From positions 24,853 through 88,852 of the forward strand of contig CAISRB010000032.1 in NCBI GenBank assembly GCA_903887775.1: DNA of 64,000 nucleotides, written 5' to 3'. The DNA comes from an uncultured Bacteroidales bacterium. Its GTDB lineage: Bacteria; Bacteroidota; Bacteroidia; Bacteroidales; FEN-979. Both the position numbers and the translations under genes were made by a program. Of the stretch, positions 640 to 57,507 are shown piece by piece. Positions within the stretch are counted from its first letter, which is position 1. Each line of letters begins with the position of its first letter. The notes below the pieces were generated by a model. It worked only from the letters and a program-made list of their open reading frames with translations, did not search any database and had not been told where the DNA came from.

Positions 640-1728
640 TTATCCTTTATAAAACGGGAACTTCACGACATGTGCTTTCAACACTTTTTCCCTGACTTTC
701 ACATAAATCGTTGAGCCTTCCTTCGATAGTTCAGCCGGTACATATCCCATGCCAACAGGTATTTTAACCGAGGGCCCCATAGTGCCGGAAGTGACCTCCC
801 CTGTTTTATTCCCGTTCGCATCGGTGATGTCGTAGCCGTGACGGGGGATTCCTTTATCGTCCATCACAAAGCCTACGAGGCGTTGCTTCACGCCTTCATT
901 CTTCTGCTTTAACAGGTATGCCTTATCAATAAAATCTTTATGGTCGGCAAACTTCGTGATCCAGCCTAAACCTGCTTCAATGGGAGAAGTTGTATCGCAG
1001 ATGTCGTTTCCGTAAAGGCAGTAGCCCATCTCTAAACGTAGGGTGTCGCGGGCCGCCAGGCCGATTGGTTTGATGCCATATGCTTTTCCTGCTTCAAATA
1101 CGGCATTCCAGATCTTCGGAGCATCTTCGTTGGCCATGTAAATCTCGCATCCGCCTGAGCCGGTGTAGCCGGTCGTGGCGAATATCACATCCTTAACGCC
1201 GGCAAAAGTGAGTTTTTTAAAGGTATAATATTCCATGTCGGTGACCTTCGTATCGGTGAGCTTCTGCATAGCTTCCAAGGCTTTAGGTCCCTGGATTGCA
1301 AGCTGCGAGATCTCATCCGAAGCATTATAAAGATCAGCGCCGATTGTATTATTTTTGGTGCACCAGGTCCAGTCCTTATCAATATTAGCTGCGTTCACGA
1401 CAAGGAGATACGTGACGTCATCCACCTTATATACCAGCAGGTCATCCACAATACCTCCCTTTCCGTTGGGGAAGCAGCTGTACTGCACCTTGCCGGGAAC
1501 CAGCTTCGACGCATCGTTTGAAGTAACCCACTGAACAAAATCCAGCGCCTTTGGGCCTTTCACCCAGAACTCACCCATATGCGACACATCGAACACCCCT
1601 ACTCCCTTGCGGACGGTTTCATGTTCTGCAATAACTCCTTCGTACTGCAGGGGCATATAATATCCTGCAAATTCCACCATCTTGGCGCCCATGGCCTCAT
1701 GGAACTTTGTAAAAGCTGTGTTTTTCAT
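640..1728 (-). CDS. gcvT: glycine cleavage system T protein (aminomethyltransferase)
   Basis: 362-aa [34 protein letters not shown]...[11 protein letters not shown], together with the length and C-terminal beta-barrel region, is typical of GcvT. Confidence 0.95.
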
Positions 1729-1945
1729 GTGTTAATATTTATTTTTTGCAAAGTGGTCACATGGAATACCCATATAATCATTCATGGTTTTTATGAATAT
1801 TGTTCGTATGGGTATTTCATTATAGCGATTGTTGAAATGTCGGAGAAAAAAGCAAAGATAAAAAAAACACCCGGCCTGCGACCGGATGTTCATATATTTT
1901 AAAGTCATTAATAATTGAACGGGATTATTTACTTTTGATGACGCT

Positions 1946-3817
1946 ATGAACATTATTACACTTCGCAGGAATACCCCCAGGGGCGTCATCTGGCTCATCG
2001 ACATGCTGATCGTACTGGGTTCCATTTTCCTGGCTTACCTCCTCCGGTTCAATTTCGACATCCCTCCCAGCGAAAGCAGGCCTTTCGCGATACTCATCCC
2101 CTGGATGCTTGCCGTGAGAGGCATCAGCTTTTTAATTTCACGCACCCATGCAGGCCTGATAAGGTATACGAGTACTGCCGATGGACAGAGGGTACTCATC
2201 ACACTGCTGGCCGGCAGTATGGTGTTCGGGCTTACGAACCTCATTACCTGGTTTACGATACAATGGTTCATGATCCCCACGACCATCATCCTGCTCGAGT
2301 TCCTGATCACGACGATGGGAATGATCTTTTTCAGAATGAGTGTGAAGGTTGCGTGGCTTGAATTCCAGAACCCCGAACGTCAGAGGGTCGATGTGATCAT
2401 CTATGGAGCCGGGGAGGAAGGCATCAATGCGAAGCATGTGATGGACCGTGACGCCGCGACGAAGTATAAAGTGATGGCTTTTATCGACAGCGATCCGGCG
2501 AAGGTGCATAAGAAACTTGAACGGATCGACATCCTGCCGCCTTCGAGGCTTGAATCGCTTTTGAAAGACCGCACCATTGCTCAGCTTATCCTCGCCATCC
2601 ATCCTGTGGATCCTGCCTATAAGCAGGAACTGGTCGATCTCTGCCTGAAATATAATACGAAAGTCCTGGCAGTGCCTCCGGCAATTCAATGGGTCAACGG
2701 GCAGCTCAGCTTTGCCCAGATCAGGCAGGTGAATATCGAAGATTTGCTTGAGCGGGATGTGATCGAGCTTGACACAGACGACATCCGAGAGTACCTGAAC
2801 GATAAAGTAGTGATGATCACCGGCGCTGCAGGTTCGATCGGCTCGGAGATCGTGCGCCAGGTTTCAAAGTTTGGCCCCGCCCGTATGATCCTGATCGATT
2901 ATGCCGAAACCCCGCTTCACAGCCTCGGGCTCGAATGCGCTGCCTCGATCAGGGGTGTTGCCATTGACTTTATTTTAGGGAATGTCTGTAATGTACTGCG
3001 GATGAGATCGCTCTTTGAGCAATACAAACCCGGGATTGTTTTCCATGCCGCGGCCTACAAGCATGTCCCGGTTCAGGAGGCCCATCCCGGCGAAGCCGTC
3101 TTTACCAATGTACATGGAACGCGTGTGATGGCGGACCTTTCGATGGAATTCGGCGTTAATAAATTTATTATGATCTCGACTGATAAGGCCGTGAACCCGA
3201 CGAGTGTGATGGGGGCCAGCAAACGGATAGCCGAGATTTACTGCCAGGCAATGAACAAGCTTAACAAAACGCATTTTATAACGACCCGTTTCGGCAATGT
3301 GCTGGGCTCCAATGGGTCGGTTATCCCCTTGTTCAGGAAGCAGATCGAAAAAGGCGGTCCTGTTACCGTGACACATCCCGAGGTGACCCGGTTTTTCATG
3401 ACTATCCCCGAAGCCTGCAGGCTTGTGCTGGAAGCAGGCGCTTTGGGAAAAGGTGGTGAGATCTTTATTTTCGACATGGGTAAGCCCGTCCGTATCCTTG
3501 ACCTGGCGAAACGGATGATTCAGCTTTCGGGGCTCGAAGCAGGGAAAGATATTCAGATTGAATACACCGGCATGCGGCCCGGCGAAAAGCTTTATGAAGA
3601 ATTGCTGAACCTCCAGGAAAATACGATGCCTACACATCACCCGCTGATCATGATCGCCAGGGTGCGCGAACAGGATCCTAAACAGGTAAGTGCCGATGTT
3701 GAATCCCTCATCGAACTCACAACCCGCCCAGATGACATCAAAGTTGTGCGAAAGATGAAGCAGATTGTACCTGAGTACAAGAGCCGGAATTCGGTGTATG
3801 AAGCGCTGGATAAATAA
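1946..3817 (+). CDS. membrane-bound nucleotide-sugar 4,6-dehydratase, CapD/PglF/WbpM family (polysaccharide biosynthesis)
   Basis: 623 aa with N-terminal TM helices. It has two Rossmann motifs (IYGAGEEG, ITGAAGSIGSE) and the HAAAYKHVP SDR motif typical of CapD-like proteins. Confidence 0.9.
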   Translation: MNIITLRRNTPRGVIWLIDMLIVLGSIFLAYLLRFNFDIPPSESRPFAILIPWMLAVRGISFLISRTHAGLIRYTSTADGQRVLITLLAGSMVFGLTNLITWFTIQWFMIPTTIILLEFLITTMGMIFFRMSVKVAWLEFQNPERQRVDVIIYGAGEEGINAKHVMDRDAATKYKVMAFIDSDPAKVHKKLERIDILPPSRLESLLKDRTIAQLILAIHPVDPAYKQELVDLCLKYNTKVLAVPPAIQWVNGQLSFAQIRQVNIEDLLERDVIELDTDDIREYLNDKVVMITGAAGSIGSEIVRQVSKFGPARMILIDYAETPLHSLGLECAASIRGVAIDFILGNVCNVLRMRSLFEQYKPGIVFHAAAYKHVPVQEAHPGEAVFTNVHGTRVMADLSMEFGVNKFIMISTDKAVNPTSVMGASKRIAEIYCQAMNKLNKTHFITTRFGNVLGSNGSVIPLFRKQIEKGGPVTVTHPEVTRFFMTIPEACRLVLEAGALGKGGEIFIFDMGKPVRILDLAKRMIQLSGLEAGKDIQIEYTGMRPGEKLYEELLNLQENTMPTHHPLIMIARVREQDPKQVSADVESLIELTTRPDDIKVVRKMKQIVPEYKSRNSVYEALDK

Positions 3818-20081: not shown

Positions 20082-20084
20082 GAA

Positions 20085-20193
20085 GCGAAAAGCGAAATAA
20101 TTTCACCTTTCGCTTTTCGCCTTTCGCTTTTCACCTTTCGCCTTTCGCTTCTCGCCTTTCGCTTTTCACCTTTCGCCTTTCGCTTCTCGCCTT
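20085..20193. repeat. 13-bp perfect hairpin followed by a 12-unit heptamer array (TTTCGCY)
   Basis: GCGAAAAGCGAAA (20085-20097) pairs with TTTCGCTTTTCGC (20108-20120). From 20108 to 20191 there are 12 x 7-bp units with a 35-bp higher-order duplication. The repeat fills the whole aroC/aguA convergent spacer. Confidence 0.85.
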
Positions 20194-21249
20194 TTATTCC
20201 GGTTCCTGCTGGCTCAGGCAATGCCATGATCCCAGTCCCCAGATGATCTCAACTGAATCTATCCCGACAACTTTGCGGCCGGGGAAACATTGCTGAAGTA
20301 TCCTCATAGCCTGCTCATCCTGCTTGCAGCGGTACAGAGGAACTATCACCGAATTGTTCGAGATATAAAAATTGGCATATGAAGCCGGCAGCCGCTGGTC
20401 CTCGAACACCACCGGATCAGGCATGGGGAGTTCAACAATATCAGCTTGCCTGCCATTTAGGAGGCGGAAAGTCTTCAGCTTTTTCAGGTTAGCTTCAAGA
20501 ATCGCATGATTGGGGTCAAGATGGTTCGGTTCCACCATAGTGATCAACCCATCGGGTTTGAAAAAGCGGGTTATGTCATCAATATGGCCGTTGGTATCGT
20601 CACCTTCAATGCCATCCTCGAGCCATAATACCTGGCTGATGCCATAAAAATTCATCAGGTATTCCTCTATCTCATGTTGTAACAGCTGTGGATTGCGGTT
20701 TTCGTGAAGCAGGCAGGCCGTTGTTGTCAGCAGAGTCCCTTCCCCGTTGAAATCAACTGCCCCTCCCTCCATCACGATGCCGGGATAATATACCGGAAGA
20801 TCGAGGAATTTACCAACCAGGCCGGGGATTTGTTCATCCAGTTCGTGAGGATATTTATCACCCCAGGCATTATATCGCCAGCTCACGATCACCTTAGGCT
20901 TTTCAGCCTTTTGATTGATGAGGAAGGCAGGGCCATGATCGCGGCACCAGGCGTCGTTTGTGGGATGGATCAGAAAATCAATCGTTGACAGGTCTATACC
21001 TCCCGACTCCAGTTCCTCCATTACTTTAATTTTAAACCCTTCATTCCTGATATTGAGGCAAACCCTCTCCCCTTTTGAAAGTTCCTTTATAAAGGCATGG
21101 TAATAGGGGTATATATTCTGAAGAGTGCCCGGCCAGGAATAGGAATCATCATGCGGATAACTCAGCCATGTGGCCCTGTGGGTATGCCATTCGGCAGGAA
21201 AATTGTAGCCAAGGTCTTTCGGAGTGGGATGCACAATACCGTTTTTCAT
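20194..21249 (-). CDS. aguA: agmatine deiminase
   Basis: 351 aa. The N-terminal pattern FPAEWHTHRATWLSYPH and the C-terminal GSWHCLSQQ active-site Cys region fit the Porphyromonas-type peptidylarginine/agmatine deiminase family. Confidence 0.9.
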   Translation of the reverse strand: MKNGIVHPTPKDLGYNFPAEWHTHRATWLSYPHDDSYSWPGTLQNIYPYYHAFIKELSKGERVCLNIRNEGFKIKVMEELESGGIDLSTIDFLIHPTNDAWCRDHGPAFLINQKAEKPKVIVSWRYNAWGDKYPHELDEQIPGLVGKFLDLPVYYPGIVMEGGAVDFNGEGTLLTTTACLLHENRNPQLLQHEIEEYLMNFYGISQVLWLEDGIEGDDTNGHIDDITRFFKPDGLITMVEPNHLDPNHAILEANLKKLKTFRLLNGRQADIVELPMPDPVVFEDQRLPASYANFYISNNSVIVPLYRCKQDEQAMRILQQCFPGRKVVGIDSVEIIWGLGSWHCLSQQEPE

Positions 21250-23186: not shown

Positions 23187-25166
23187 ATGAGGCCGGGCCT
23201 GCTTTTTGCTTTTCTTATTGCGGCTTTACCATTTGCTAACATGGCGCAGGCTGACGGAATGCAGGTTGACTCCTGCAAACTCACCCTTGATAAAAAACTT
23301 GAAAAAAAATACAACGATGCCACGATCAGCTTCAAGCATGGTAACTTCGTAAATACAATTATCCTGCTTAAGGAAGTTCTCAAAGAGGAACCAGGTTATA
23401 CTGATGCCGCTTACCTGATGGGCCTGGCCAATGTCAAAAAAGCAACACCGAATTACAGGGATTCTGAGAAGTGGTTCCTGCAGGTGCTCACCACCTGCCC
23501 AACTTATGATATTTACCTGTATTTCTATCTTGGGCAGATCGCATACGGAGCTGAACGTTACGAAGATGCCGTGAAATACCTTGAGGTCTTTCTTAAAGAT
23601 GTCGACAGGATAAAAAGCGATGAAGATTATGACAAGGCCACAGAACTTATTAAATATGCAAAGTTCACGGTTGATGTGGTCTCCCATCCTGTTCCTTTTG
23701 ACCCAAAGGTGGTGGAAGGCATTTCCACCCCACAGGATGAATACCTTCCAATTCTTTCTCCTGATAACCAGGTGGCTTTGTTTACGAGGGTAGTGAAACT
23801 TGAAGGAGATAAGAATTCGGTGGTATCCTCGGCAAGGAGCAGGGAGAAATTCATGTTCAGCGAACAGGGCAGGGACGGCAGCTTTGGCCCGGGCGAAGAA
23901 ATGCCCGAACCGTTCAACATCCAGGACAATGAAGGAGGCGCTACGCTTACCGCCGATAATAATTTTCTGTATTACACGGTTTGCAAGTATGATAATGCAA
24001 AGCATTACCTTAACTGTGACATTTACTATTCGGAAAGGGTTGACGGCGACTGGACTCCGATAAAAAGTGTGAGCGACAAGATAAACCTGCCTTATTCATG
24101 GGAATCACAGCCCAGCATTTCGGCGGATGGCAGAACGCTGTATTTTGTAAGCGACCGTCAGGGAGGGTTCGGGGGCTACGATATCTACCGTTCAATAAAA
24201 ACTGCAAACGGTGAATGGGGAACCCCGATCAACCTGGGTCCGGTCATCAATTCAAAAGGCAATGAAAAGTCTCCTTTCATTCATCCTGATGGCAGGACTC
24301 TTTATTTTTCTTCGGATGGGTGGATAGGGCTCGGGGGTTACGACATTTTTTATTCAAGGATGAACGATAACGGCAGCTGGTCAAAAGCCAGAAACATTGG
24401 CTATCCCATCAATTCGCCGGATGATGAGGTCGGTTTTTTTGTGAGTACCGACGGGACGAAAGGCTTCTTCGCCTCAAATAAATATAATGGAAAAGGAGGA
24501 TGGGATCTGTATTCCTTTAACCTGTATGAAGATGCCCGGCCCGACAGGATACTTTTCCTGAAGGGTACGGTTCGAGAAGAGAATACGACTGAACCTGTAA
24601 AAGCCAGGATAGAACTGAAAAATGTGGAGACCAAAAAAGTGGAAGAGATACCCCTGGATACGAATACAGGGAATTACTTTGCCGTTGCACCTTATAATAC
24701 CGATTACGTGATGACGGTAAAAAAGGAAGGCTTTGTATACGAGACGAAGTATATTGCGAAGGTCGACAGTTCACACCCTGTGGTCAGGAATGTGGATGTA
24801 GATATCAAACCCATTGAACTTAACCAGTCTTACCGCATCAATGATATTTACTTCGGATTTAACAAATCGGACCTTAACGGGGAATCGAAGTCCGTGCTTG
24901 ACCAGCTGATCGAATTCCTTAGTGAAAACCCTGCAATTTGCATACAGATACAGGGTCATACCGACAATATAGGCAACGATGCAGAGAACCTCAGTCTTTC
25001 CGAGAACCGCGCCCGTTCAGTTTATAATTACCTGGTAATAAAGGGGATCTCGGCAAAACGCCTGATGTATAAAGGCTTTGGGAAGACCATGCCTGTTGCT
25101 GACAATAATACGGAAGAAGGCAGGGCCAAAAACAGGCGGACGGTGTTTGTGATCACTAAGAAGTAG
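23187..25166 (+). CDS. OmpA family protein with TPR and TolB-like (PD40) repeats
   Basis: 659 aa with a signal peptide and TPR-like N-terminus. It has repeated SxDGxTLYFxSDR..GxGGxDI(Y/F) PD40 units. The C-terminal OmpA domain shows GHTDNIGNDAENLSLSENRA..V..YL and GRAKNRRTVF. Confidence 0.85.
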   Translation: MRPGLLFAFLIAALPFANMAQADGMQVDSCKLTLDKKLEKKYNDATISFKHGNFVNTIILLKEVLKEEPGYTDAAYLMGLANVKKATPNYRDSEKWFLQVLTTCPTYDIYLYFYLGQIAYGAERYEDAVKYLEVFLKDVDRIKSDEDYDKATELIKYAKFTVDVVSHPVPFDPKVVEGISTPQDEYLPILSPDNQVALFTRVVKLEGDKNSVVSSARSREKFMFSEQGRDGSFGPGEEMPEPFNIQDNEGGATLTADNNFLYYTVCKYDNAKHYLNCDIYYSERVDGDWTPIKSVSDKINLPYSWESQPSISADGRTLYFVSDRQGGFGGYDIYRSIKTANGEWGTPINLGPVINSKGNEKSPFIHPDGRTLYFSSDGWIGLGGYDIFYSRMNDNGSWSKARNIGYPINSPDDEVGFFVSTDGTKGFFASNKYNGKGGWDLYSFNLYEDARPDRILFLKGTVREENTTEPVKARIELKNVETKKVEEIPLDTNTGNYFAVAPYNTDYVMTVKKEGFVYETKYIAKVDSSHPVVRNVDVDIKPIELNQSYRINDIYFGFNKSDLNGESKSVLDQLIEFLSENPAICIQIQGHTDNIGNDAENLSLSENRARSVYNYLVIKGISAKRLMYKGFGKTMPVADNNTEEGRAKNRRTVFVITKK

Positions 25167-25392
25167 CGAAATTGTACTGAGCGAAGCATTATAAACAAGC
25201 CGCATCAGGTGGAGGGTAGGGAGCATTTTGCGTAAGCGGCCTCAGGTGGAGCGCAGCGACACCGTAGCCGCGACGCAAAGATGCGACCGTATAGCGACAC
25301 CGTAGCCGCGACGCAAAGATGCGACCGTATAGCGACACCGTAGCTGCGACACAAATATGCGAGTAAAAGCGGCGGTGTAAAAATGCGAGCGA
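25167..25392. repeat. composite dispersed intergenic repeat, copy A (includes 3 x 38-bp tandem units)
   Basis: It starts immediately after the OmpA stop and ends at the ribH stop. It contains GAGCGAAGCA, two AAGC(C/G)GC(A/C)TCAGGTGGA blocks and three 38-bp units GCGACACCGTAGCCGCGACGCAAAGATGCGACCGTATA (25256-25369). It is the reverse complement of the elements at 34210-34424 and 57237-57413. Confidence 0.85.
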
Positions 25393-25854
25393 TTATATTT
25401 CCTTCACCACATTCGCCATTTCGATAGCAGCAAGCGCTGCATCAAACCCTTTGTTTCCGCTTTTCGTGCCGGCTCTTTCGATAGCCTGTTCAATATTATC
25501 AGTCGTAAGCACACCATAGATCACGGGTACTCCTGAATCCATGCCGGCTGCAGCTACACCTTTCGATACCTCGGCTGCGACATAGTCGAAATGAGGCGTT
25601 GCCCCGCGGATCACTGCCCCCAGGCATATTACTGCGTTGTATTTCCCACTTGTTGCAAGTTTTTTGGCTAAGAGTGGGATCTCGAACGATCCCGGAGCCC
25701 AAACCAGGTCTATCGCTGCCTCATCGGCACCATGGCGTTTCAGTCCGTCAAGACATCCACTCAGCAGTTTCCCGCTTATGAACTCATTGAAACGTGCGAT
25801 CACGATTGCAAATTTCAATCCTTTCGCATCCAGTTTTCCTTCAATTGTACGCAT
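25393..25854 (-). CDS. ribH: 6,7-dimethyl-8-ribityllumazine synthase
   Basis: 153 aa. The pattern [12 protein letters not shown]..., [10 protein letters not shown] and [14 protein letters not shown] is canonical for RibH. Confidence 0.95.
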
Positions 25855-25880: not shown

Positions 25881-25990
25881 ATGAGGCATGTGCCATGAGA
25901 CATGAGACATGAGCCACGAGGCATGAGGCATGAGCCATGAGCCACGAGCCATTAACTTTTTCGCTTTTCGCTTCTCGCTTCTCACTTTTT
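25881..25990. repeat. two adjacent heptamer arrays (10 x ATGAGNC, then 5 x TTYTCRC) in the ribBA-ribH spacer
   Basis: 25881-25950 reads atgaggc atgtgcc atgagac atgagac atgagcc acgaggc atgaggc atgagcc atgagcc acgagcc. 25957-25990 reads ttttcgc ttttcgc ttctcgc ttctcac ttttttc. Confidence 0.9.
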
Positions 25991-29230: not shown

Positions 29231-29274
29231 AGTAAAAACCAAAAAACATGAGGGTATGTTACCTCAATATCCAA

Positions 29275-33504: not shown

Positions 33505-34209
33505 ATGAACATCATAGTAACAGGAGCGGGGAAGGGTATTGGTTATGAACTGGTTAAAATACTTTGTAAACATAAACAGAACCATATCCTGGCAATTTCG
33601 CGTAAAATGAATGAGCTGAAGGAATTAGTAAGCGACTGCCATAAGCAAACACCTGAAGCAAAGATCACCCCCTACGAGTTTGACCTGAACCAGTTTGATT
33701 TTTATCCTTTTATCGCCCAAAGGATGGAAGCTATCCTTCACAAGGTTGATATCATCATTCACAACGCAGGGCGGATGGTCAACAAACCGTTTGCAAAGAT
33801 CGAACAGGGCGACTTCGACGAGGTTTACAATGTCAATATAAAAGCTCCGTTCTTTTTCACCCAGGCCTTGCTGCCGCTTATGAACAAAGGGGGTCATATC
33901 GTAATGATCAGCAGCCTCGGAGCAATACCAGGGACAAAGAAATTCGCCGGGCTTTCAGCATACAGCTCCAGTAAAGGCGCACTTGCCATCCTGAGCCAAT
34001 GCCTTGCCGAAGAAATGTCAGATATGGATATCCATGTCAACTGTCTGGCACTGGGAGGCGCCCAGACGAAAATGTTTGAAAAAGCTTTTCCGGGCGCAAA
34101 AGCTCCGCAGTCGCCTCAGCAGATGGCGGTTTTTATTGCTGATTTTGCCGTTAACGGACAGAAATATTTCAATGGGAAGGTGCTGGAGGTGGCGCTTTCG
34201 GGTACATAA
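33505..34209 (+). CDS. short-chain dehydrogenase/reductase (SDR) family oxidoreductase
   Basis: 234 aa with TGAGKGIG cofactor motif, NAG and the YSSSK catalytic motif. Confidence 0.85.
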   Translation: MNIIVTGAGKGIGYELVKILCKHKQNHILAISRKMNELKELVSDCHKQTPEAKITPYEFDLNQFDFYPFIAQRMEAILHKVDIIIHNAGRMVNKPFAKIEQGDFDEVYNVNIKAPFFFTQALLPLMNKGGHIVMISSLGAIPGTKKFAGLSAYSSSKGALAILSQCLAEEMSDMDIHVNCLALGGAQTKMFEKAFPGAKAPQSPQQMAVFIADFAVNGQKYFNGKVLEVALSGT

Positions 34210-34424
34210 ATTGAAATATCGAAGTATCAGAACCGCTCGCATCTTTGCAACGCGGCTACGGTGTCGCTTTCGGTCGCAACTTCACAACGCCGCTACGGTG
34301 TCACTTCGTTCCACCTGATGCGGCTTGTGTGAATTGCTCCCTCCGTTCCACCTGATGCCGCTTATGCAAAATGCTTCGCTCAAATAATTTCGCCACCTCG
34401 CTACCTCACTACCTCACTACCTGT
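34210..34424. repeat. composite dispersed intergenic repeat, copy B, with 4 x 8-bp CCTCRCTA tail
   Basis: It fills the SDR/hydF convergent spacer. It has two GCTACGGTGTC(G/A)C units and two TCCACCTGATGC(G/C)GCTT blocks (e.g. 34310-34326), then GCTTCGCTC. The tail cctcgcta cctcacta cctcacta cctgtcta ends at the hydF stop. Confidence 0.85.
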
Positions 34425-35654
34425 CTACAGGTAATCCCCCCTGTCCCCCATCTTCCCGGTAAACGGTGCGATAGCACGATGATAGATCCCATGCACCCAG
34501 GCAATGGCCATGCCGTAGTTCGTGACAGGTATTCCCGCATCAAGGGCCGGCTTGAGCCGGTTATGAAGCTGCTTCCTCGTAATCATGCAGCCTCCGCACT
34601 GTATTACCATCGCATAATCGGTAACTGGCCCTGGCATAGCGCCTAGTCCGGATACGACATCGAAAGAAAGGTTTTTCCCGGTGAAATTATTCAGCCACCT
34701 CGGGATTTTCACCCTTCCGATATCATCACAGGAAACATGATGTGTGCAGGATTCGAGTATGAGCACCCTGTCTCCCTGTTTCAGCCTGCTGATCTCCGGA
34801 GTGCCCTTCAGGTAATTCTCAAAATCGCCTTTCTGGCGCGCCAGCACAATACTGAAACTGGTTAAAGGGATCTCTTTCGGGACTGCTGCATCGGCTTTCG
34901 GGAAGACCTGGCTGTCGGTGATCGCCAAAACAGGCTTGGGATGCATTTTCTTTATATAGGCATCCACTTCCCTTTCCTTGCATACAACGCATATCCCATC
35001 ATGATCAAGCACATCCCTGATCACCTGAACCTGGGGCAATATCATCCGCCCCTCGGGGGCTTCAATATCAATAGGAGTAATAAGCAGAACCGTATCGCCA
35101 TACGAAATCAGGTCTCCGACAAGAGGCCTTTTCGTATAAGCCGATTCGGGCATTGTTTCATACATAATGCGGATGACATCCTCCAGCTTATCGGGCCTGA
35201 GGGAAGAAAAATCCAGAACGGGCACATTGAACCTGTCTTCCAATACTCTTGATAAATCTGTATCCAGGGCCTCCTCATCCGACTTATTGTGAATGATGAC
35301 AAACGGCAAACCAGCCTTCTGAAAATCCCTGATCAGGTTTTTCTCCGCATCTTCAAAAGTATTATGTGCAATGAGCAGGATGGCGAGGTCGACCTGGCTG
35401 AGCGCTTCCTTTGTTTTGGCAATTCTCTTTTCTCCAAGTTCTCCCTGGTCGTCAATACCGGCGGTATCGATAAGCACAACCGGACCAAGCCGGGGTATTT
35501 CAATCGACTTTTTAACAGGATCGGTCGTGGTCCCTGCAATGTCAGAAACAATGGCCACTTCATGTCCGGCAAGAGTATTGATAAGAGAGCTTTTCCCGAT
35601 GTTCCTTCGTCCAAATATTCCGATATGGGGTTTTGTGTCGCGTCCGCGTTTCAT
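34425..35654 (-). CDS. hydF: [FeFe]-hydrogenase H-cluster maturation GTPase HydF-like
   Basis: 409 aa with GTPase motifs GRRNIGKSS (G1), DTAG (G3) and NKSD (G4). The C-terminal Cys/His cluster CTHH...QCGGC is in the position of the HydF FeS-binding motif. Confidence 0.8.
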   Translation of the reverse strand: MKRGRDTKPHIGIFGRRNIGKSSLINTLAGHEVAIVSDIAGTTTDPVKKSIEIPRLGPVVLIDTAGIDDQGELGEKRIAKTKEALSQVDLAILLIAHNTFEDAEKNLIRDFQKAGLPFVIIHNKSDEEALDTDLSRVLEDRFNVPVLDFSSLRPDKLEDVIRIMYETMPESAYTKRPLVGDLISYGDTVLLITPIDIEAPEGRMILPQVQVIRDVLDHDGICVVCKEREVDAYIKKMHPKPVLAITDSQVFPKADAAVPKEIPLTSFSIVLARQKGDFENYLKGTPEISRLKQGDRVLILESCTHHVSCDDIGRVKIPRWLNNFTGKNLSFDVVSGLGAMPGPVTDYAMVIQCGGCMITRKQLHNRLKPALDAGIPVTNYGMAIAWVHGIYHRAIAPFTGKMGDRGDYL

Positions 35655-35662
35655 AGCTGACA

Positions 35663-37187: not shown

Positions 37188-40100
37188 ATGAATTTAACCC
37201 GGTTCTTAATCTTGAAACGATTTCACTTTCTCTTTTTACTGTTTCTTCTCCCCTTTCTGCTGCCCGCTCAAAGTAATACCGATTTCTGGTTCGCAGCACC
37301 GGAGATAACTTCCGGCCATGGCGACCAGCCTATTTATTTTCGGCTGACCTCTTTCAGCCAGACTGCAAATGTAACGATTTCGGAGCCGGCAAACACAATG
37401 GCGAATTTTCCTCCGATAATGGTTACAATACTTGCAAATTCGACATTTACAGTCGACCTGACCTCCCGGAAGAGCAAGGTCGAATGTACGCCTCCGAACA
37501 CAACCCTGAATCTTGGATTATTAATTCACTCCACTGTACCAATCACCGCTTATTACGAGGAAGCTCATATGAACAACCCTGAAATTTTTACATTGAAGGG
37601 TAAAAATGCGATGGGGACTTCTTTTTTCATACCCTCCCAGAATGTAATGGATAACTATCCCGACTTAACCCCTCCTGCATACAATTCATTTGATATTATT
37701 GCAACTGAGGATAATACTACGATAACAATTACTCCCAGGAAAGCGATTGTAGGGCATGCTGCCGGAGTTCCATTCACGATAACCCTGAATAAGGGCCAGG
37801 TATACAGCGCTCAGGCCACAAGCCAGCTTGGCGCCAATCATCTCCAGGGATCTAAAGTCACTTCCGACAAAGCTGTATGTATTACCGTTAAAGACGATTC
37901 GGACAGATATCCGGGACAGGGATGCTGGGACCTTACAGGCGATCAGATTGTACCCGTGAATATTGTTGGTCAGGAATATATCGTGGTGAGGGGCTATACG
38001 AACAGTACAATGAATGACTGGGCGTTTATCACTGCCACCGTTGATAATACCGTCGTTAATGTAGGAGGGTCTCCGTATGCAATTCTGAATGCTGGAGAAA
38101 CATACAGATATGCGCTGAACTCCACTGATCTGTCGTCATATATTGAGACGACCCATCCGGCGTATGTTTGGCATCTCACTGGTTATGGTTGTGAAACAGG
38201 TACAGCTCTCCTTCCTCCGATGGATTGTACAGGTTCATCCCAGGTTGCCTTTACGCGCACAACACAGTATGCATTCGAGCTCATCATTCTTACCAGAGAG
38301 GGAGCCCAGGGTTCCTTCACTCTTGACGGGAGCTCCACTAAGGTGACAGCCTCAATGTTTTCACCGGTTGCCGGCAACCCGGCTTTCGTTTATGCTAGGA
38401 TTGAATTTCCGGTTGGCAACCTCTCTGTTGGGGCACATATCCTTTCGAATTCCCAGGATATTTTTCATATGGGGGTTATTCATACTTATGATGCCAGCCA
38501 GCTGGGTTGTTCCTATGGGTACTTTTCCGATTTCGCCAGCCTTAACCTGGGGTCCGACAAAACAGTATGTCCGGGCACTTCCGTCACTTTCGATGCAGGG
38601 CCAAACCGGCAAAGCTATGACTGGTTCTTTAACGGCAATCCTTATGCATCCGGAGTTCAAACAATTACTGTAAGCAACCCGGGTGTTTATTCTGTTACTG
38701 TGAATGACCACGGATGTATTTTATCCGACCAGGTCCAGCTTTTTAATTATCCCAACCCCAGCCCTGTCATTATAGGAGTAACGGATTTCTGCATGGGGGC
38801 TTCGGAGCAGCTCAGCGTCAGCGGCACATACAGTTCTTATCTGTGGACTACCGGGGAAACTACTCAATCTATCACAGTCAGCGCCAGCGGCACCTATGGA
38901 GTCACTGTTACTAATATTTCAGGGTGCCATGGATCTGCTTCCGTGGTTGTAACAGTGCATCCCCTGCCAACTGTGACATTGGCCCAGCCTGCATCTGCCT
39001 GCATCAATATGACTCCATATGCACTTACCGGTGGCAGCCCCCCGGGAGGGGTTTATTCAGGGCCGGGGGTAACTTCTTCAACAGGCATTTTCAGTCCTTC
39101 TGTGGCAGGTTTGGGAGACCATGTAATAACATATACCTATGCGTCAGCAGAAGGCTGTTCGAATTCGGATTCCAAAACACTTACCGTTTATCCCCTGCCT
39201 GCGGTTCAGCTTTCAGCCCAGGCTCCCGTCTGTATTTCAGCTTCCCCTTATGCCTTAAGCGGCGGTACACCATCAGGAGGTACTTACTCCGGCCCCGGGG
39301 TCACTTCCTCAACCGGAATTTTCAGTCCTTCAGTTGCCGGTCCGGGCGATCATACGATAACCTATTCTTATACTTCAGCTGAAGGCTGTAGCAGCTCAGC
39401 TTCAAAAACCCTCACCGTTTACTCTCTTCCCGCAGTTCAGCTGGCTGCTCAGCCTTCAGTCTGCATATCGGCCTCACCTTTTCATTTAACAGGAGGGACC
39501 CCGGCAGGAGGTGTTTATTCCGGCGCCGGGGTTAATTCATCTACAGGTATTTTCAGTCCTTCTATTGCAGGTGCAGGGGATCATACTATAACCTATACTT
39601 ACACTGATGCGAACACCTGTGTCAACTCAGCATCTAAAATTCTTACTGTTTACGCCCTTCCTGTGGTGCAGCTGGCAGCTCAACCATCAGTTTGCATCTC
39701 GGCGCCGCCTTTTCTTTTAACAGGCGGGACTCCCTCAGGAGGGGTTTATTCCGGCTCCGGGGTCAATTCATCCACCGGTATTTTCAGTCCTTCTGTTGCC
39801 GGCCTGGGGGATCACACAATCACCTATACTTACACCTCAGCTGCAGGTTGTACCAATTCAGACTATAAAGTTCTCACAGTCAACCCTCTTCCTGTTGTAC
39901 AGCTCTCGCCCCAGCCTGCCGTCTGTATCTCTGTCCCGCCTTATGCCTTAAGCGGGGGAACGCCGGCAGGAGGTACATATTCCGGTTCCGGGGTGAATTC
40001 CTCAACCGGTATATTCAGCCCTTCTGTGGCAGGTACAGGAGATCATATTATAACCTATTCTTTTACCACAGCCGCTGGGTGTACCAGCTCAGCTTCGAAA

Positions 40101-41942
40101 ACACTTACCGTTTATCCGCTTCCTTCGGTTCAGCTCTCTGCACAGGCTGCTGTTTGCATCTCGGTCCTGCCTTATGCCTTAAGCGGTGGTACGCCTGCAG
40201 GAGGTACATATTCCGGGCCAGGGGTCAATCCATCAACCGGCATTTTCACCCCTTCTCTGGCAGGTCCGGGAGATCATGTAATAACCTATACATACACCAA
40301 CGCCAACTATTGTACCAACTCAGCTTCTAAAACTCTTACCGTGTACTCCCTTCCCGTGGTTCAGCTGGCCGATCAGGCAGCCGTCTGCATTTCAGCTCCT
40401 CCTTTTACCTTAAGCGGTGGCGCCCCTGCAGGAGGGTCATATTCAGGTCCCGGTGTGGATCCGGCTACCAGTGTTTTCGATCCTTCTTCAGGGCCGGGAG
40501 ATCACCTGATCACCTATACCTATACCGATGCCAATGGTTGTACCAACACAGCTGCTAAAATACTTACCGTCAACTCCCTTCCGGTAGTACAGTTTCCTCT
40601 GCAGGCGGCAGTTTGTATTACTGCCCCGCCTTTTGCCCTGGCAGGGGTCACACCTGCAGGAGGGACATATTCAGGGACCGGGGTCGATCCGTTAACTGGG
40701 ATATTTGACCCTGCCTCAGGGGAAGGAGTTCATTTATTAACTTATACATACACCGATGCGAATTTTTGTACGAACATGGCTTCATCGAGCATCAGCGTGA
40801 TCCCCCTGCCGTTACCAACAGGGACTATCACCGGGCCAAATACGGTTTGTGAAGCAACACAGAATATTTCTTACATCCTGAGCGGCGCCGACCCGCTTGC
40901 CACAACCTTCAACTGGGAGATCAGCCCTCTCGCTGCAGGAACTATCAGCGGAACAGATGCATCCCCGGCAGTATCTTTAAATATCGGGTATTCGGGCAGC
41001 ATCATTATTAGGTTTCAGCCTGTAAGCAATTGCGGGGCAGGGAACTTCTCATCTTATACCAGCATTACAGTCAACCCAAATCCTTACGTCATGTTGCAGT
41101 CCTGTAATGACCCGGTTACAAGCAGAGGCGCACAACCCTTCCTGCTGAAAGGCGGAGTTCCCCCCGATGGTATTTATGCCGTTGACGGGAATGTTCTGAC
41201 TTCACCTTCCATTCTTGATCCTTCAACCCTGAGCCCAAGTCCACCCGATCATACCATTACATATACTTATACCAACCGTTTTGGCTGTGCTGTAACCCAA
41301 TCCCAGTCCCTGAAGGTCAAGAGTGCCTCCGGATTTATTTGTAAGAACATTCTAACCGATATACGCGACGGGAAAACGTATCCTACTTTTGAAGTAGTGA
41401 CAGGAACCACTCACCGCTGCTGGATGTCGGCAAATCTGAATTACGGCAGCTTTATCCGGGGCAATGCAGCACAAACCGATAACTGCAGCATCGAGAAGTA
41501 CTGCGAAGGGGATGATGCCGCAAAATGCAACGAATCAGGCGCTCTTTACCAATGGGATGAACTCATGAATTACGCATCTGCCGATATTGTATCTGCGGAA
41601 GGGAAACAGGGCTTATGCCCACCCGAATGGCATGTCGCGACGGAGGCGGAATGGATGATGCTGGAGAATTATTACCTGGGACCCGGGCTTGCCGGATGGA
41701 CTCTTTTGGACCCTAATCCATCGTATGGTTTTTATGCTGAGAACAAAGGGATTTATTACCAGAATCTCATCTGGGCTTTTTTACCCCCGGGGTTTTCAGC
41801 CACCTTATTCTGGACCTCGACCCCGAACCCGTCAGACAATACAAAAATACTCAGTCACGGTTTGAATGATATTAACCCCAGTGTGTCAAAATATTTCTCA
41901 ACGCGGGGCAACGCTTTGCCGGTTCGCTGTGTCAAGGATTAA
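37188..41942 (+). CDS. giant secreted protein: IgGFc-binding-like head, 8 tandem Ig-like repeats, PKD-like module, adaptor, C-terminal FISUMP domain
   Basis: 1584 aa with signal peptide MNLTRFLILKRFHFLFLLFLLPFLLPA. The head begins TDFWFAAPE. Eight 76-77-aa repeats follow, then a C-terminal DIRDGKTYPTFEVV..CWMSANLNYG...GALYQWDE...GLCPPEWHVATEAEW...LPVRCVKD (FISUMP pattern). There is no T9SS tail. Confidence 0.85.
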   Translation: MNLTRFLILKRFHFLFLLFLLPFLLPAQSNTDFWFAAPEITSGHGDQPIYFRLTSFSQTANVTISEPANTMANFPPIMVTILANSTFTVDLTSRKSKVECTPPNTTLNLGLLIHSTVPITAYYEEAHMNNPEIFTLKGKNAMGTSFFIPSQNVMDNYPDLTPPAYNSFDIIATEDNTTITITPRKAIVGHAAGVPFTITLNKGQVYSAQATSQLGANHLQGSKVTSDKAVCITVKDDSDRYPGQGCWDLTGDQIVPVNIVGQEYIVVRGYTNSTMNDWAFITATVDNTVVNVGGSPYAILNAGETYRYALNSTDLSSYIETTHPAYVWHLTGYGCETGTALLPPMDCTGSSQVAFTRTTQYAFELIILTREGAQGSFTLDGSSTKVTASMFSPVAGNPAFVYARIEFPVGNLSVGAHILSNSQDIFHMGVIHTYDASQLGCSYGYFSDFASLNLGSDKTVCPGTSVTFDAGPNRQSYDWFFNGNPYASGVQTITVSNPGVYSVTVNDHGCILSDQVQLFNYPNPSPVIIGVTDFCMGASEQLSVSGTYSSYLWTTGETTQSITVSASGTYGVTVTNISGCHGSASVVVTVHPLPTVTLAQPASACINMTPYALTGGSPPGGVYSGPGVTSSTGIFSPSVAGLGDHVITYTYASAEGCSNSDSKTLTVYPLPAVQLSAQAPVCISASPYALSGGTPSGGTYSGPGVTSSTGIFSPSVAGPGDHTITYSYTSAEGCSSSASKTLTVYSLPAVQLAAQPSVCISASPFHLTGGTPAGGVYSGAGVNSSTGIFSPSIAGAGDHTITYTYTDANTCVNSASKILTVYALPVVQLAAQPSVCISAPPFLLTGGTPSGGVYSGSGVNSSTGIFSPSVAGLGDHTITYTYTSAAGCTNSDYKVLTVNPLPVVQLSPQPAVCISVPPYALSGGTPAGGTYSGSGVNSSTGIFSPSVAGTGDHIITYSFTTAAGCTSSASKTLTVYPLPSVQLSAQAAVCISVLPYALSGGTPAGGTYSGPGVNPSTGIFTPSLAGPGDHVITYTYTNANYCTNSASKTLTVYSLPVVQLADQAAVCISAPPFTLSGGAPAGGSYSGPGVDPATSVFDPSSGPGDHLITYTYTDANGCTNTAAKILTVNSLPVVQFPLQAAVCITAPPFALAGVTPAGGTYSGTGVDPLTGIFDPASGEGVHLLTYTYTDANFCTNMASSSISVIPLPLPTGTITGPNTVCEATQNISYILSGADPLATTFNWEISPLAAGTISGTDASPAVSLNIGYSGSIIIRFQPVSNCGAGNFSSYTSITVNPNPYVMLQSCNDPVTSRGAQPFLLKGGVPPDGIYAVDGNVLTSPSILDPSTLSPSPPDHTITYTYTNRFGCAVTQSQSLKVKSASGFICKNILTDIRDGKTYPTFEVVTGTTHRCWMSANLNYGSFIRGNAAQTDNCSIEKYCEGDDAAKCNESGALYQWDELMNYASADIVSAEGKQGLCPPEWHVATEAEWMMLENYYLGPGLAGWTLLDPNPSYGFYAENKGIYYQNLIWAFLPPGFSATLFWTSTPNPSDNTKILSHGLNDINPSVSKYFSTRGNALPVRCVKD
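38958..40799 (+). repeat. in-frame tandem coding repeat, 8 units (6 x 231 bp + 2 x 228 bp)
   Basis: Unit starts are 38958, 39189, 39420, 39651, 39882, 40113, 40344 and 40572. The consensus is (Y)xLPxVQLxxQxxVCISxxP(Y/F)xLxGGTPxGGxYSGxGVxSSTGIFSPSVAGxGDHxITYxYTxAxGCxxSxSKxLTV. Long identical DNA stretches occur between units. Confidence 0.92.
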
Positions 41943-50303: not shown

Positions 50304-51989
50304 TCACCTGATCTTCCCGTTTACCATCGCAAGAATTTTTTCTTCCCTTGCTTTAGCTGCGTCAACAATCTCCCCGGCTTCCTTCAGCAGTTTATCAAGA
50401 AAAGTTTTATCCTTCAGGCCGGAAGCATTGATCTTGACATTCAGGTAAGCCCCGATAACAGCCGACCTCACACAAAGAGCTCCCACACCGGCATCAGTCA
50501 CAGAGTTGGGGTTTCCTTTATCAACCATAGCCTCGATGATATCGAAAGATTCATACGCCTTTTTCATCGTCTTAAAAGGGATCTCGATAGCATATTTTGT
50601 TGCATCCTGTATCGCCGCTGAACGTATGGCTTTCTCTTCTTCTGATCCTTTGGGAAGCCCGAAAGCGTTCATGATACGGTTGAAAGCGCGGGTATCTTCA
50701 TCAACTAAGAAAAGTAATTCATCTTTGAGGTTTTGTCCTTTTTCGGCCCAGTCGCCAAACCATTCCCACTCCTCATCCCATCCTGGCTTATGGGAAGAAA
50801 GGTTCGCAACCATTGTCCCCAGGGAAACCCCGAGAGCGCCGATATATGCTGATACGGAACCGCCCCCGGGAGCAGGGGATTCCGAAGCCGTCTCGTTTGC
50901 GAAACCTTCAGCGGTCATTCTTACAAGCTTCCGGTCTGCAGTATCCTCAAGTATAAATTCAATGATCTTTTCTTTCGGATTAAAGGGTTTCAGGTCATCC
51001 AGCCCAAGTGATTTAACGGCGATCCTGATGATCTCATCTTCTGAAACACCAGCTGACCGCTGTTGTTTCCTGAGGAAATACTTCCCGGCCTCAACCATAG
51101 CCCGTTTGGGGATAAGGCCGACGAGTTCGCTGCCGGTAACCCTCATTCCGCGTGCCAGGGCTTTTTCACAGGCAACTTCAAAAGCCAGATGCACCGGGGT
51201 AATACTGATGTTGGTCAGATTGATCGAAACCTGGGCAATGCCGTATTCCTCAATAAACCAGCCAATGGCTTTGCAGGCTTTCAGCGCACCCGGAACCCAT
51301 ATTTCATCTCCTTTTTCATCTTTCTTTATTTTTCCTGTAACCTGATTGCCTTCGCGGACAGGCCGTCCCTTTTCGCGTATGTCATACGCAACAGCGTTGG
51401 CCCTGCGCGTTGAAGTCGTATTCAGGTTCACATTGTATGCAACCAGGAAATCTCTCGCTCCTATAGCTGTTGCACCTGTGCGCGGATTGAACAGGGCCGG
51501 GCCAAAGTCAGGTTTCCAGCGGGGATCGGCAAGCTTTTTCGGAAGGCCTTCGTATTCGCCGGCCCTGCAGTTGGCCAGGTTGCGGCGTTCTTCAGTGAAG
51601 GCAGCATTCTCGTAACAGTATACAGGTATCCCGAGTTCCTTTCCAACACGCTCGGCCAGTTTGCGGGCATAAGCCGCGGTTTCTTTGATGCTGATGTTTG
51701 AGACCGGGACCAGAGGGCAAACATCGGTTCCCCCGAACCTGGGATGTTCCCCCTTATGTTTGCTCATATCAATTACCTCCGATGACTTTTTGATAGCCTG
51801 GAAAGCAGCTTCCAAAACAGCATCCGGACTGCCTACAAAAGTCACCACGGTACGGTTGGTTGCCTTTCCGGGATCAACGTCCAGCAGGCGAACACCGTCA
51901 ACATTCTCAATTTCATCGGTAATCAATTTAATCAGATGCATGTCAACCCCCTCAGAGAAATTGGGGACACATTCGATGAGCTGTTTCAT
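50304..51989 (-). CDS. bifunctional glutamate formimidoyltransferase / formimidoyltetrahydrofolate cyclodeaminase
   Basis: 561 aa. The start MKQLIECVPNFSEG is the formiminotransferase signature. The C-terminal roughly 200 aa is helical and cyclodeaminase-like. The enzyme belongs to the histidine degradation pathway. Confidence 0.9.
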   Translation of the reverse strand: MKQLIECVPNFSEGVDMHLIKLITDEIENVDGVRLLDVDPGKATNRTVVTFVGSPDAVLEAAFQAIKKSSEVIDMSKHKGEHPRFGGTDVCPLVPVSNISIKETAAYARKLAERVGKELGIPVYCYENAAFTEERRNLANCRAGEYEGLPKKLADPRWKPDFGPALFNPRTGATAIGARDFLVAYNVNLNTTSTRRANAVAYDIREKGRPVREGNQVTGKIKKDEKGDEIWVPGALKACKAIGWFIEEYGIAQVSINLTNISITPVHLAFEVACEKALARGMRVTGSELVGLIPKRAMVEAGKYFLRKQQRSAGVSEDEIIRIAVKSLGLDDLKPFNPKEKIIEFILEDTADRKLVRMTAEGFANETASESPAPGGGSVSAYIGALGVSLGTMVANLSSHKPGWDEEWEWFGDWAEKGQNLKDELLFLVDEDTRAFNRIMNAFGLPKGSEEEKAIRSAAIQDATKYAIEIPFKTMKKAYESFDIIEAMVDKGNPNSVTDAGVGALCVRSAVIGAYLNVKINASGLKDKTFLDKLLKEAGEIVDAAKAREEKILAMVNGKIR

Positions 51990-54525: not shown

Positions 54526-54952
54526 TGGTTTCCTTTTTTAATGAATCCAGGGCAGCAAGGGCGCATTCCTGGTCTTTACTATAATGTCCGCCACTGATGC
54601 CGATGGCTCCGATCAGCTGGCTGCCGGAAACAATGGGCATTCCTCCACCCATCAGCATAAAATCCATAAACCCATGCACACCCTCCCTCAGGATCGGGTC
54701 GTCTTTGATAAAACTGAACCAGGAGTCTCCTGTCGGAATGCCTAAACCCACTGCAGTTATTGCCTTCTTTCTCGAAGCATCGACCGCAATGAGCGGTGCA
54801 TTGTCCATCCTGGCAAACAGTTTGAGAATCCCGCTTTCATCCACTATTGTAACGGCAATGGCCATCCCGAGTTCCCTGGCTTTCTCAAAGGCAGCCTTTG
54901 TCATATGTTCTGCATCCGTAAGGCTGACCGATCTTTTAATATAATCTTCCAT
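54509..54952 (-). CDS. GlcG/HbpS-like (DUF336) putative haem-binding protein
   Basis: MEDYIKRSVSLTDAEHMTKAAFEKARELGMAIAVTIVDESG...IGAIGISGG is the DUF336 pattern. I prefer the ATG at 54952 to the upstream TTG at 55012. Its 3' end overlaps the sensor kinase start by 17 nt. Confidence 0.8.
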   Translation of the reverse strand: MEDYIKRSVSLTDAEHMTKAAFEKARELGMAIAVTIVDESGILKLFARMDNAPLIAVDASRKKAITAVGLGIPTGDSWFSFIKDDPILREGVHGFMDFMLMGGGMPIVSGSQLIGAIGISGGHYSKDQECALAALDSLKKETNDKNP

Positions 54953-55184
54953 TGGATTGCTTTTAACGAGGTAAATATAAGCAAATTCAAAGAAAAGCAT
55001 CGGGATCAACAACCATCAGGCAATGTAAAAAAAAATGAAAATATTATATTCAGGCGGATTTTCTAAATTTGTAAAGATTAAAAATTATTACCAAATGAAA
55101 TACACATAAGGACTACGTTCATACTAATCGTGAATGTTAATTATGTGTATTCCATGTGACCATTAAAAAACAAATTATTAACAC

Positions 55185-57236: not shown

Positions 57237-57507
57237 CGAGCAGTGAGGTAGCGAAATCGCTCGCAATCTTGCACCGCTTCTACGGTGTCGCTTACGCTCG
57301 CAACTTCACACCGCCGCTACGGTGTCACTTCATTCCACCTGATGCGGCTTGTGTGAATTGCTCCCTTCGCTCCACCTGAGGCAGCTAGTGCAAATTGCTT
57401 CGCTCCAATAATTTCGCTTTTCGCTTTTCGCTTTTCGCTTTTCGCTTTTCGCTTTTCGCTTTTCGCTTTTCGCTTTTCGCTTTTCGCTTTTCGCTTTTCG
57501 CTTTTCG
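57237..57507. repeat. composite dispersed intergenic repeat, copy C, plus about 13.5 x GCTTTTC heptamer array
   Basis: 57237-57413 is homologous to 34210-34424 (e.g. TCCACCTGATGCGGCTTGTGTGAATTGCTCCCT at 57334-57366). 57414-57508 is (TCGCTTT)n. GTGAGGTAGCG (57243-57253) is inverted as CGCTACCTCAC (57514-57524), inside the hutI 3' end. Confidence 0.88.

Follow-up and report, generated by a model that had tools for sequence, protein, structure and literature searches.

We analysed a 64,000-nt stretch of DNA from an uncultured Bacteroidales bacterium (GTDB lineage FEN-979; assembly GCA_903887775.1, contig CAISRB010000032.1, positions 24,853 to 88,852; hereafter the window), in which three copies of a composite repeat of about 200 bp each occupy the spacer between two converging genes. 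These repeats probably belong to a non-autonomous family of selfish palindromic DNA, similar to the REP, REPIN and RPE elements, that is carried by an uncultured freshwater lineage of the Bacteroidales. The family was previously undescribed, and its kind (REP/RPE-like) is familiar; its unusual traits are nested modules, microsatellite feet and ancient in-frame copies. Within and beyond the window, copies occupy any non-lethal position, i.e. spacers of all kinds, often with the stop codon supplied by the element, as well as loops within the reading frames of MurF-Alr and MutY.

A hairpin module made of two complementary units

An earlier note, made from the sequence alone, had listed motifs that the three copies share in the same order. 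All of these motifs are present at the coordinates listed there, and reading and aligning the three regions returned the common order. The A motif AAGCSGCMTCAGGTGGA occurs six times in the window, solely within the three copies (0.34 occurrences expected by chance), and the B motif GCGACACCGTAGCSGCG seven times (0.07 expected); the head GCGAAATTATTKGAGCGAAGCA is exact in two of the copies. The 38 bp given for the B unit agree with the arrays reported by Tandem Repeats Finder (TRF), which gives a 38-nt B array at 25255-25362 and a 37-nt array at 57258-57330. The A unit is indeed present in two copies, its true period being 37 nt (25197 to 25234) instead of roughly 45 bp, and GAGCGAAGCA, listed as a motif of its own, is actually the start of the first A unit.

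Folding revealed that the B unit is an imperfect reverse complement of the A unit and that the last A and the first B unit make one long hairpin. Each copy is therefore a nested palindrome. The basic module is a hairpin of ~62-74 nt whose apex has the form C(GNA)G and which contains tandem G.A pairs and internal loops that do not vary. It starts with 2 base pairs and a tandem G.A at the foot; stems of 4, 7, 5 and 4 bp follow from base to apex, with a bulged G and two invariant internal loops (AA/G and MTCA/GTA) between them; the top consists of another tandem G.A and a 2-bp stem under a GNA triloop. GNA triloops closed by C-G form unusually stable DNA mini-hairpins. A CRISPR array was rejected as an explanation of the tandem units: they are contiguous, their 37-38 nt period equals the unit length, and the two halves of the array are inverted.

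The structure was named on a gap-free alignment of 46 distinct 62-nt hairpins. Pairing is found in 96.7% of the cells across these hairpins, whose search pattern had fixed parts of stems 3 and 4 and left the lower stems and the apex pair free to vary. Changes on both sides of a pair occur in 9 of the 22 pairs (127 cells), e.g. UA, AU and GC at columns 4-59, UA and CG at 7-55, AU and GC at 8-54, and CG, GC and UA at 16-47; the covariation check proposed in the earlier note thus gave a positive answer. None of 500 shuffles matched these pairing and covariation values, and controls with slid partners pair in 24-60% of cells. The unpaired positions are near-invariant while the stems change by compensatory substitution. 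The flanks lengthen the stem by the tandem G.A and 2 bp (GC/GC in 20 copies, GG/CC in 15), the feet reading SS-GA...GA-SS. Minimum-free-energy folds of single copies independently return the named structure, among them that of the central hairpin of copy 1, and whole-copy folds reach z = -4.2 (copy 2) and z = -4.7 (copy 3). Of the two strands, the top one folds more stably, with an advantage of 0.7-0.9 kcal/mol for DNA and 3.6-4.3 kcal/mol for RNA, and mismatches in the stems comprise 18 G.T versus 6 A.C. The tetranucleotide GTAG is invariant and is found at alignment columns 42-45, within the 3' arm's internal loop.

The three window copies (Table 1) each fill their spacer from stop codon to stop codon, the converging open reading frames (ORFs) being 23187..25166+ / 25393..25854-, 33505..34209+ / 34425..35654- and 55185..57236+ / 57508..58761-. 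Copy 1 is built of two A units, three B units and a partial fourth, with a tail adjoining the TAA stop of ribH; the partial B unit (about 25363-25389) bears a GCGGC arm complementary to the outer A unit. Copy 2 is made of a (GGTAGTGA)n microsatellite, a GCGAAATTATTT head, two A units, two B units and a tail bearing ATTTC, and lies between hydF, which ends in TAG, and an SDR gene, which ends in TAA. Copy 3, first placed at 57237-57413, is real and reaches 57233-57524 once its microsatellite and inverted outer arms are counted. By coordinate reading, the TAG stops at copies 1 and 3 lie within the element's own GTAGCGA arm sequence, and at copy 3 the TAG stops of both flanking genes fall inside the outer arms. 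These outer arms are all that an ungapped inverted-repeat finder reports, interrupted stems escaping that finder.

Table 1. Positions of the repeat copies, their parts and flanks, and of a related palindrome in the window
Feature	Position	Strand	Basis or remark
Copy 1, whole element	25166..25392	+	spacer completely filled; motif counts, alignment, ORF table
Copy 1, head GCGAAATT	start of 25166..25392	+	overlaps TAG stop of PD40/OmpA gene
Copy 1, A-unit pair, 37-nt period	25180..25253	+	motifs at 25197-25213 and 25234-25250
Copy 1, central hairpin module (innermost A + innermost B)	25223..25284	+	covariance model R1, 90.4 bits, E=1.6e-22
Copy 1, B units (2.8 copies of 38 nt + partial unit)	25255..25389	+	TRF, motif matches
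Copy 1, flanking genes			PD40/OmpA and RibH; Pfam and neighbour look-up
Copy 2, whole element	34210..34424	-	alignment, ORF table, motif matches
Copy 2, central hairpin module	34276..34337	-	R1, 86.9 bits
Copy 2, segment absent from deletion allele (A1, A2, B1), 113 nt	34286..34398	-	ends approximate: junction in GCGA microhomology
Copy 2, foot octamer microsatellite GGTAGTGA x3.5	34395..34422	-	TRF
Copy 2, flanking genes			SDR and HydF; Pfam and neighbour look-up
Copy 3, whole element with outer inverted arms	57233..57524	-	ORF table, inverted-repeat search
Copy 3, outer arms	57243-57254 / 57513-57524		100% complementary
Copy 3, outer arms	57242-57256 / 57503-57517		93% complementary
Copy 3, central hairpin module	57300..57361	-	R1, 87.3 bits
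Copy 3, foot microsatellite (GCGAAAA)x14	57412..57509	-	TRF
Copy 3, flanking genes			unknown 683-aa protein and amidohydrolase; Pfam and neighbour look-up
Microsatellite palindrome without module	20083..20194	.	GCGAAAA x2 facing (TTTCGCN)x13 around GAAATAATTTC

Copy number, hosts and genomic context

We searched public genome and metagenome collections with the conserved apex pattern and then built the covariance model R1 from the alignment. In the window, R1 gives exactly three matches (87-90 bits), the next best scoring 16 bits. Related loci comprising 543 kb contain 83 matches, with a maximum of 5 per 8 kb, and contigs of 8-14 kb hold up to four or five, so that the look into public collections suggested in the earlier note did find copies beyond the window. 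The genome collection yielded 12 loci in a single metagenome-assembled genome (MAG), 'uncultured Bacteroidales bacterium Kiruna_bin-10044' (CAIWXI01), and further matches in two other Bacteroidota MAGs; the metagenome collection yielded 55 loci in about 24 datasets. Four metagenome contigs are ~99% identical to the window, and genes shared with the Kiruna MAG show an identity of ~75-82%. Of the 28 pattern matches in the genome collection, about 15 were discarded as chance matches of a loose pattern, e.g. L014 and L046 in GC-rich coding DNA. No copies were found in viral contigs, and a literature search by sequence string found the core 11-12-mers in none of the papers covered. The description as a REP/BIME-like or MITE-like dispersed repeat (BIME, bacterial interspersed mosaic element; MITE, miniature inverted-repeat transposable element) is therefore supported in its general sense: this is a multi-copy palindromic family, present in several genomes and metagenomes, whose unit number and presence vary within populations.

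The conserved, covarying secondary structure might also be expected of small RNA genes or of a cis-regulatory RNA family such as a riboswitch or leader. Rfam, which the earlier note had proposed to consult, holds no known family that matches the repeat at the gathering threshold or at E<=10 (E-value mode, run on two copies, returned noise alone, with E-values of at least 2), and its sole match in the window at gathering score is a flavin mononucleotide (FMN) riboswitch. No promoter-like signal stands out at the three junctions, the unit number is variable, modules are nested, and copies lie on either strand relative to their neighbours and also inside ORFs. With this mixed orientation and the lack of an Rfam match, the small RNA genes considered at first appear extremely unlikely.

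All three window copies lie exactly between converging stop codons, as had been noticed; this does not extend to the family. Counting 74 non-identical copies with crude ORF calls, we found 35 between tandem (co-directional) genes, 12 at convergent junctions, 10 at divergent junctions, 7 at contig edges and 10 inside a called ORF. Since tandem, convergent and divergent contexts are all occupied, convergent junctions are not a property of the family, and the association is a sampling accident of this window. Among the tandem copies, 23 of 35 are oriented opposite to the genes and 12 in the same direction. Their core is closer to the upstream stop (median 49 nt) than to the downstream start (103 nt), in 24 loci versus 10, a mild bias towards gene 3' ends that resembles REPs.

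REPs stabilise mRNA in Escherichia coli as 3'-exonuclease barriers, and it could be argued that the present repeats are likewise RNA structures that the host selects at gene 3' ends, serving as bidirectional terminators or as barriers that stabilise mRNA. Such a role would fit the convergent gene-end spacers filled by 3/3 window copies, the shorter distance to the upstream stop in tandem contexts, the strength of the hairpins (z from -4 to -5), the excess of G.U over A.C mismatches and the greater stability of the top strand as RNA. However, none of the three window hairpins is followed by a T/U tract, and a terminator scan was negative at all three junctions. In addition, 10 copies lie between divergent starts and 3 inside coding sequences, copies in tandem contexts point in either direction, part of the population carries a deletion allele without the hairpin, and the proportions of the contexts (21% convergent, 18% divergent, 61% tandem) look like a random draw of spacers. 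Selection at gene ends is therefore improbable as an explanation, and bidirectional termination, one of the functions first proposed, finds no support as the role that defines the family.

Several contigs (L016, L021, L023, L027 and L091) end within hairpin or microsatellite arrays, which means that the repeats fragment assemblies. ORF callers also make false ORFs of 90-180 aa through such arrays. Most of the 10 copies counted inside called ORFs appear to be cases of this type, and three are real.

Nesting, variation and decay

The composite '200-bp' copies are hairpins nested in hairpins, lengthened by slippage of single A or B units. At loci with at least two A and at least two B units, some of them related to each other, pairing of the outer A unit is better with an outer B unit than with the innermost one in 19 cases, worse in 1 and equal in 4; counting G.U as a full pair gives 18 versus 5. 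Inner and outer pairs often come from different subfamilies, as in copy 2, where the outer A unit favours the outer B unit (15 vs 12). Slippage alone would make neighbouring units alike, and inverted duplication would erase the asymmetry of A and B; we infer from this that modules insert as a whole into the apical loops of modules already in place. That slippage occurs as well is seen from identical neighbouring units in L039, L044 and L059 and from the duplication of B units in copy 1. The left and right loop sequences of nested modules are not correlated.

The central hairpin of copy 1 agrees in 62/62 positions with a hairpin that the Kiruna MAG carries at a non-orthologous locus, and in only 45-46/62 with those of the other two window copies. 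Thus, stem subfamilies are common to several species, which suggests either that a replicating 'master' sequence is under constraint or that copies moved recently. Within the population, which is present in roughly 200 metagenome samples, two contigs (L054 and L090) lack a 113-nt segment of copy 2 that two others (L088 and L089) retain; this deletion was seen in two independent samples, and most contigs hold the full copy. With the GCGA microhomology at its junction, it shows that copies lose segments by microhomology deletion. The (GCGAAAA) array of copy 3 has 14, 9 or 8 units, with 8-9 in the contigs that are 99% identical. At the orthologous site in a ~80%-identical species, a (GGTGAAAT)n microsatellite, a truncated A unit and an inverted arm are found without the hairpin centre. 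In this species (L002 2113-2376; L059 7144-7575), the orthologs of 50304..51989 and 55185..57236 are adjacent and divergent, with the element between their starts; the window has two added genes between them (52033..54525 and 54509..55012), the result of a rearrangement or indel next to the element.

Three copies are found inside genes. One module (L057) lies within an 876-aa ORF that Pfam identifies as a MurF-Alr fusion. Compared with its ortholog and with Streptococcus pneumoniae MurF (PDB 2am1), this ORF has 26-45 extra residues between the MurF domains: the ortholog in L011 (72% identical) lacks 26 of them, and PDB 2am1 differs by about 37 between domains 1 and 2. L011 itself contains a degenerate module and an in-frame (GCTACTT)x3 microsatellite at a second site of murF-alr. 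Each site has a remnant in the respective other species: L011 retains a heptamer palindrome at site 1, and L057 a fragment of a B unit at site 2. Both insertions are thus older than the species split, and they have decayed without breaking the reading frame. The third module lies in a MutY homolog (L065), where 47 residues are inserted exactly between residues 168 and 169 of PDB 3g0q. In the alanine racemase half of the L011 gene (ORF 847..3513 (-), residues about 655-675), a 'RYRMSDIGYQISDIGNQ' segment is absent from the ortholog; its 7-residue period, corresponding to three heptamers per 21 nt, suggests a microsatellite that may have expanded in frame within the gene.

This variability bears on a further possibility. 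BIMEs have been proposed as sites for gyrase, integration host factor (IHF) or nucleoid proteins, and an array of structural DNA sites, bound by such a chromosomal protein or used in replication or repair and kept for chromosome organisation, would account for the invariant unpaired bases, the C(GNA)G apex, a density of up to one copy per 2-3 kb and a weak bias towards the G-rich strand. We give it a very slim chance: the number of units and the presence of copies differ within one population, decayed copies are seen at orthologous sites, some copies lie inside coding sequences, and no candidate protein is known.

Nearly every copy adjoins a tandem repeat of 7-8 nt on its 5' side, and the repeated unit varies by locus (GCGAAAA, GCGAGAA, GGTAGTGA, GGATGCR, GGCGGAT, GAATATY, GCGTTATT and GGTGAAAT); at times the 3' side bears an inverted or direct copy of the microsatellite. 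Several further arrays in the window are found without a module. One of them is the palindrome at 20083-20194 in the spacer between the chorismate synthase and agmatine deiminase-like genes, which has no R1 match and could represent a site of this system that is empty or has decayed. It explains the fragment of the end motif noticed at 20085, where GCGAAAAGCGAAATAATT is indeed present, by its facing GCGAAAA and TTTCGCN arrays. Microsatellites of 7-8 nt with differing units are seen in many spacers (20101-20194, 25881-25989, 27894-28069, 34395-34422, 35662-35701 and 57412-57522); they are a genome-wide trait that is only partly tied to the hairpin element. The riboflavin operon next to copy 1 (ribD 28065-29159, ribE-like 27251-27889, ribBA 25994-27232 and ribH 25393-25854), downstream of the FMN riboswitch (29272-29420 (-), 104 bits), has three such arrays between its genes: (GCGTTATT)x22 at 27894-28069, (ATGAGCC)x10 at 25881-25952 and (TTTTCGC)x4.6 at 25958-25989. 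A G-rich heptamer array of telomere-like sequence (AGGGGTT/AGGGATT x5.7, 35662-35701), located between hydF and the adjacent gene, resembles the GGGGAYT repeats of Nostoc (PMC4692102) and could form a G-quadruplex. A longer tandem repeat of 228-231 nt (6.6 copies, 73% matches) is present at 39053-40691 in the 1584-aa ORF 37188..41942, the first of three adjacent paralogous giant ORFs (37188-49133) whose relatives elsewhere bear Por_Secre_tail domains of the type IX secretion system (T9SS).

Relation to known repeats and possible mode of spread

With REP, BIME and REPIN elements the family shares its short, imperfect palindromic form, in which stems vary by compensation and unpaired bases are conserved. 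Further common points are clusters that differ in their number of units, high copy number, a mostly extragenic and occasionally intragenic location with a bias for gene 3' ends, the absence of target-site duplications, and subfamilies that persist across species (PMC3733652, PMC6006769, PMC3116915). As in REPINs, two inverted units form one long hairpin, here with 96.7% pairing and 9 compensatory pairs. There are also clear differences. REPs carry a GT[AG]G tetranucleotide 0-2 nt 5' of the hairpin foot, whereas here GTAG lies inside an internal loop; the module measures 62-74 nt instead of 20-40 nt; units are nested (A A | B B) instead of alternating with linkers; and the feet carry locus-specific heptamer microsatellites. 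Moreover, no gene for a REP-associated tyrosine transposase (RAYT) was found in the family loci or the window.

RPEs are palindromic repeats of ~100-150 bp found in spacers and in frame in housekeeping genes, which they leave open with an added peptide loop (PMC10969869), as seen here in MurF-Alr and MutY; both intragenic REPs and in-frame RPEs are known (PMC3733652, PMC10969869). The CGTC tag of RPEs (PMC3733652), however, is matched here by GACG/CGTC in the 'GCG' stem subfamily only, in a covarying stem and not conserved at an end. The host belongs to another phylum and has another lifestyle, and ~4% of the sampled copies are intragenic, compared with nearly half in some RPE families. On the evidence of the tag, the two appear to have no sequence similarity. 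BOX elements of S. pneumoniae are also modular, with an internal unit of ~40 nt in variable number, a stable fold and an intergenic location, and they cluster or insert into other repeats (PMC10969869); they consist of direct boxB repeats between distinct ends (boxA-boxB(n)-boxC), in contrast to the mutually complementary tandem-array arms and nested order found here. Over-abundant 7-nt repeats in spacers, sometimes forming inverted pairs and varying in length between close relatives, are known as cyanobacterial STRR and as the GGGAATC and GGGGAYT repeats of Xanthomonas and Nostoc (PMC4692102); in the present lineage many different units are found, joined to the feet of a hairpin element and also in frame within genes.

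Within the Bacteroidales, a parallel is BrickBuilt of Porphyromonas gingivalis, a MITE with a strain-variable minisatellite that is dispersed in intergenic regions and breaks assemblies (PMC4596501). It differs by its 23-nt direct repeat AGAYCATARTATCCTCTCRTRTG, its long distinct leader and tail, its IS5-like inverted ends GAGACCTTCGCA and its strictly intergenic location, and the 23-nt unit has 0 matches in the window at up to 3 mismatches. The precedent nevertheless favours a classical MITE, i.e. an insertion sequence that has lost internal parts, is bounded by terminal inverted repeats and is moved by a DDE transposase, which leaves target-site duplications. The element is overall an inverted repeat, the copy at 57 kb has outer inverted arms of 12-15 nt, and the family is dispersed with size variants. 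On the other side, no target-site duplication was found, a permutation test of the flanks being weak (57/2000), and no related full-length insertion sequence is present in 543 kb of flanks. The outer arms differ by locus and are built of microsatellite units, the conserved part is the apex and not the termini, and BrickBuilt itself has no trace of its unit in the window. The GAGCGA...GAGCGA repeats at the ends, considered as a target-site duplication, turned out to be the compensatory stem extension in its GC/GC and GG/CC forms. A MITE in the strict sense, as first suggested, is therefore very unlikely.

Under the more probable reading, that of selfish REP-like palindromes, the fixed unpaired bases and the better-folding top strand would make the hairpin the site that a trans-acting enzyme recognises, probably an enzyme working on single-stranded DNA (ssDNA). 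The invariant loops would then be a protein recognition surface, one strand would be the active strand, as the excess of G.T over A.C mismatches and the C(GNA)G apex also suggest, new copies would often land in the apical loop of existing ones, and effects on transcript 3' ends or protein loops would be by-products. The best candidate enzyme would be a Y1 HUH transposase of the RAYT type, with which the absence of target-site duplications is consistent. We consider this identification possible, though doubtful. RAYT subclasses 2.4 and 2.6 occur in Bacteroidetes, and those of subclass 2.6 are flanked by genome-repeated 'atypical secondary structures' (PMC6006769).

Several observations weigh against the family being selfish DNA of this kind. 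No kind of transposase recurs near the copies, the only recurrent ORFs there being paralogous surface proteins and syntenic genes, and six-frame translations, covering 752 kb in all, contain no HUH...Y..NP motif in the family loci or the window. The conserved GTAG does not lie at the 5' foot as in canonical REPs. All polymorphisms seen are deletions and slippage, none directly an insertion event; several sites are old and common to species, and the family could be largely fossil. The orientation with respect to GC skew (48 vs 27 toward the G-rich strand) is weak and rests on non-independent data points. Finally, the covariation could stem from templated repair of one arm by the other and not from selection. 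The sole match to the HUH...Y..NP motif comes from the discarded chance locus L014, in an Armatimonadia MAG unrelated to the family: there, a stop-free stretch of 223 aa with NHAH ... YIERNP, typical of RAYT-like Y1 transposases, accompanies the apex-pattern match in GC-rich coding DNA.

A more specific proposal, which we regard as rather unlikely, is that of a self-targeting ssDNA element, without terminal repeats or target duplication, that is moved by a Y1 HUH enzyme of the Bacteroidetes type (RAYT 2.4/2.6) or by another enzyme, nests preferentially in the apical loops of its own copies and seeds the microsatellites at its feet; processing or stalling of replication would be what seeds these locus-specific heptamers. 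If this were true, it would link REP-like hairpins with heptameric microsatellites, both of which are prominent in cyanobacteria too, and copies that lie in frame would continually supply essential enzymes with new surface loops.

For work on this lineage, the repeats are also an annotation problem, as their arrays break MAG assemblies, create false ORFs and shift the stop codons of neighbouring genes, and masking is advisable. Taken together, the covariance model and the fold add a defined repeat family to the Bacteroidota, where REP-like elements are poorly described. With its nested modules of different subfamilies, modules that are identical despite 20% divergence of the genes, segregating deletions and copies in murF and mutY that predate the species split, this family offers material to study how palindromic elements spread, persist and decay.

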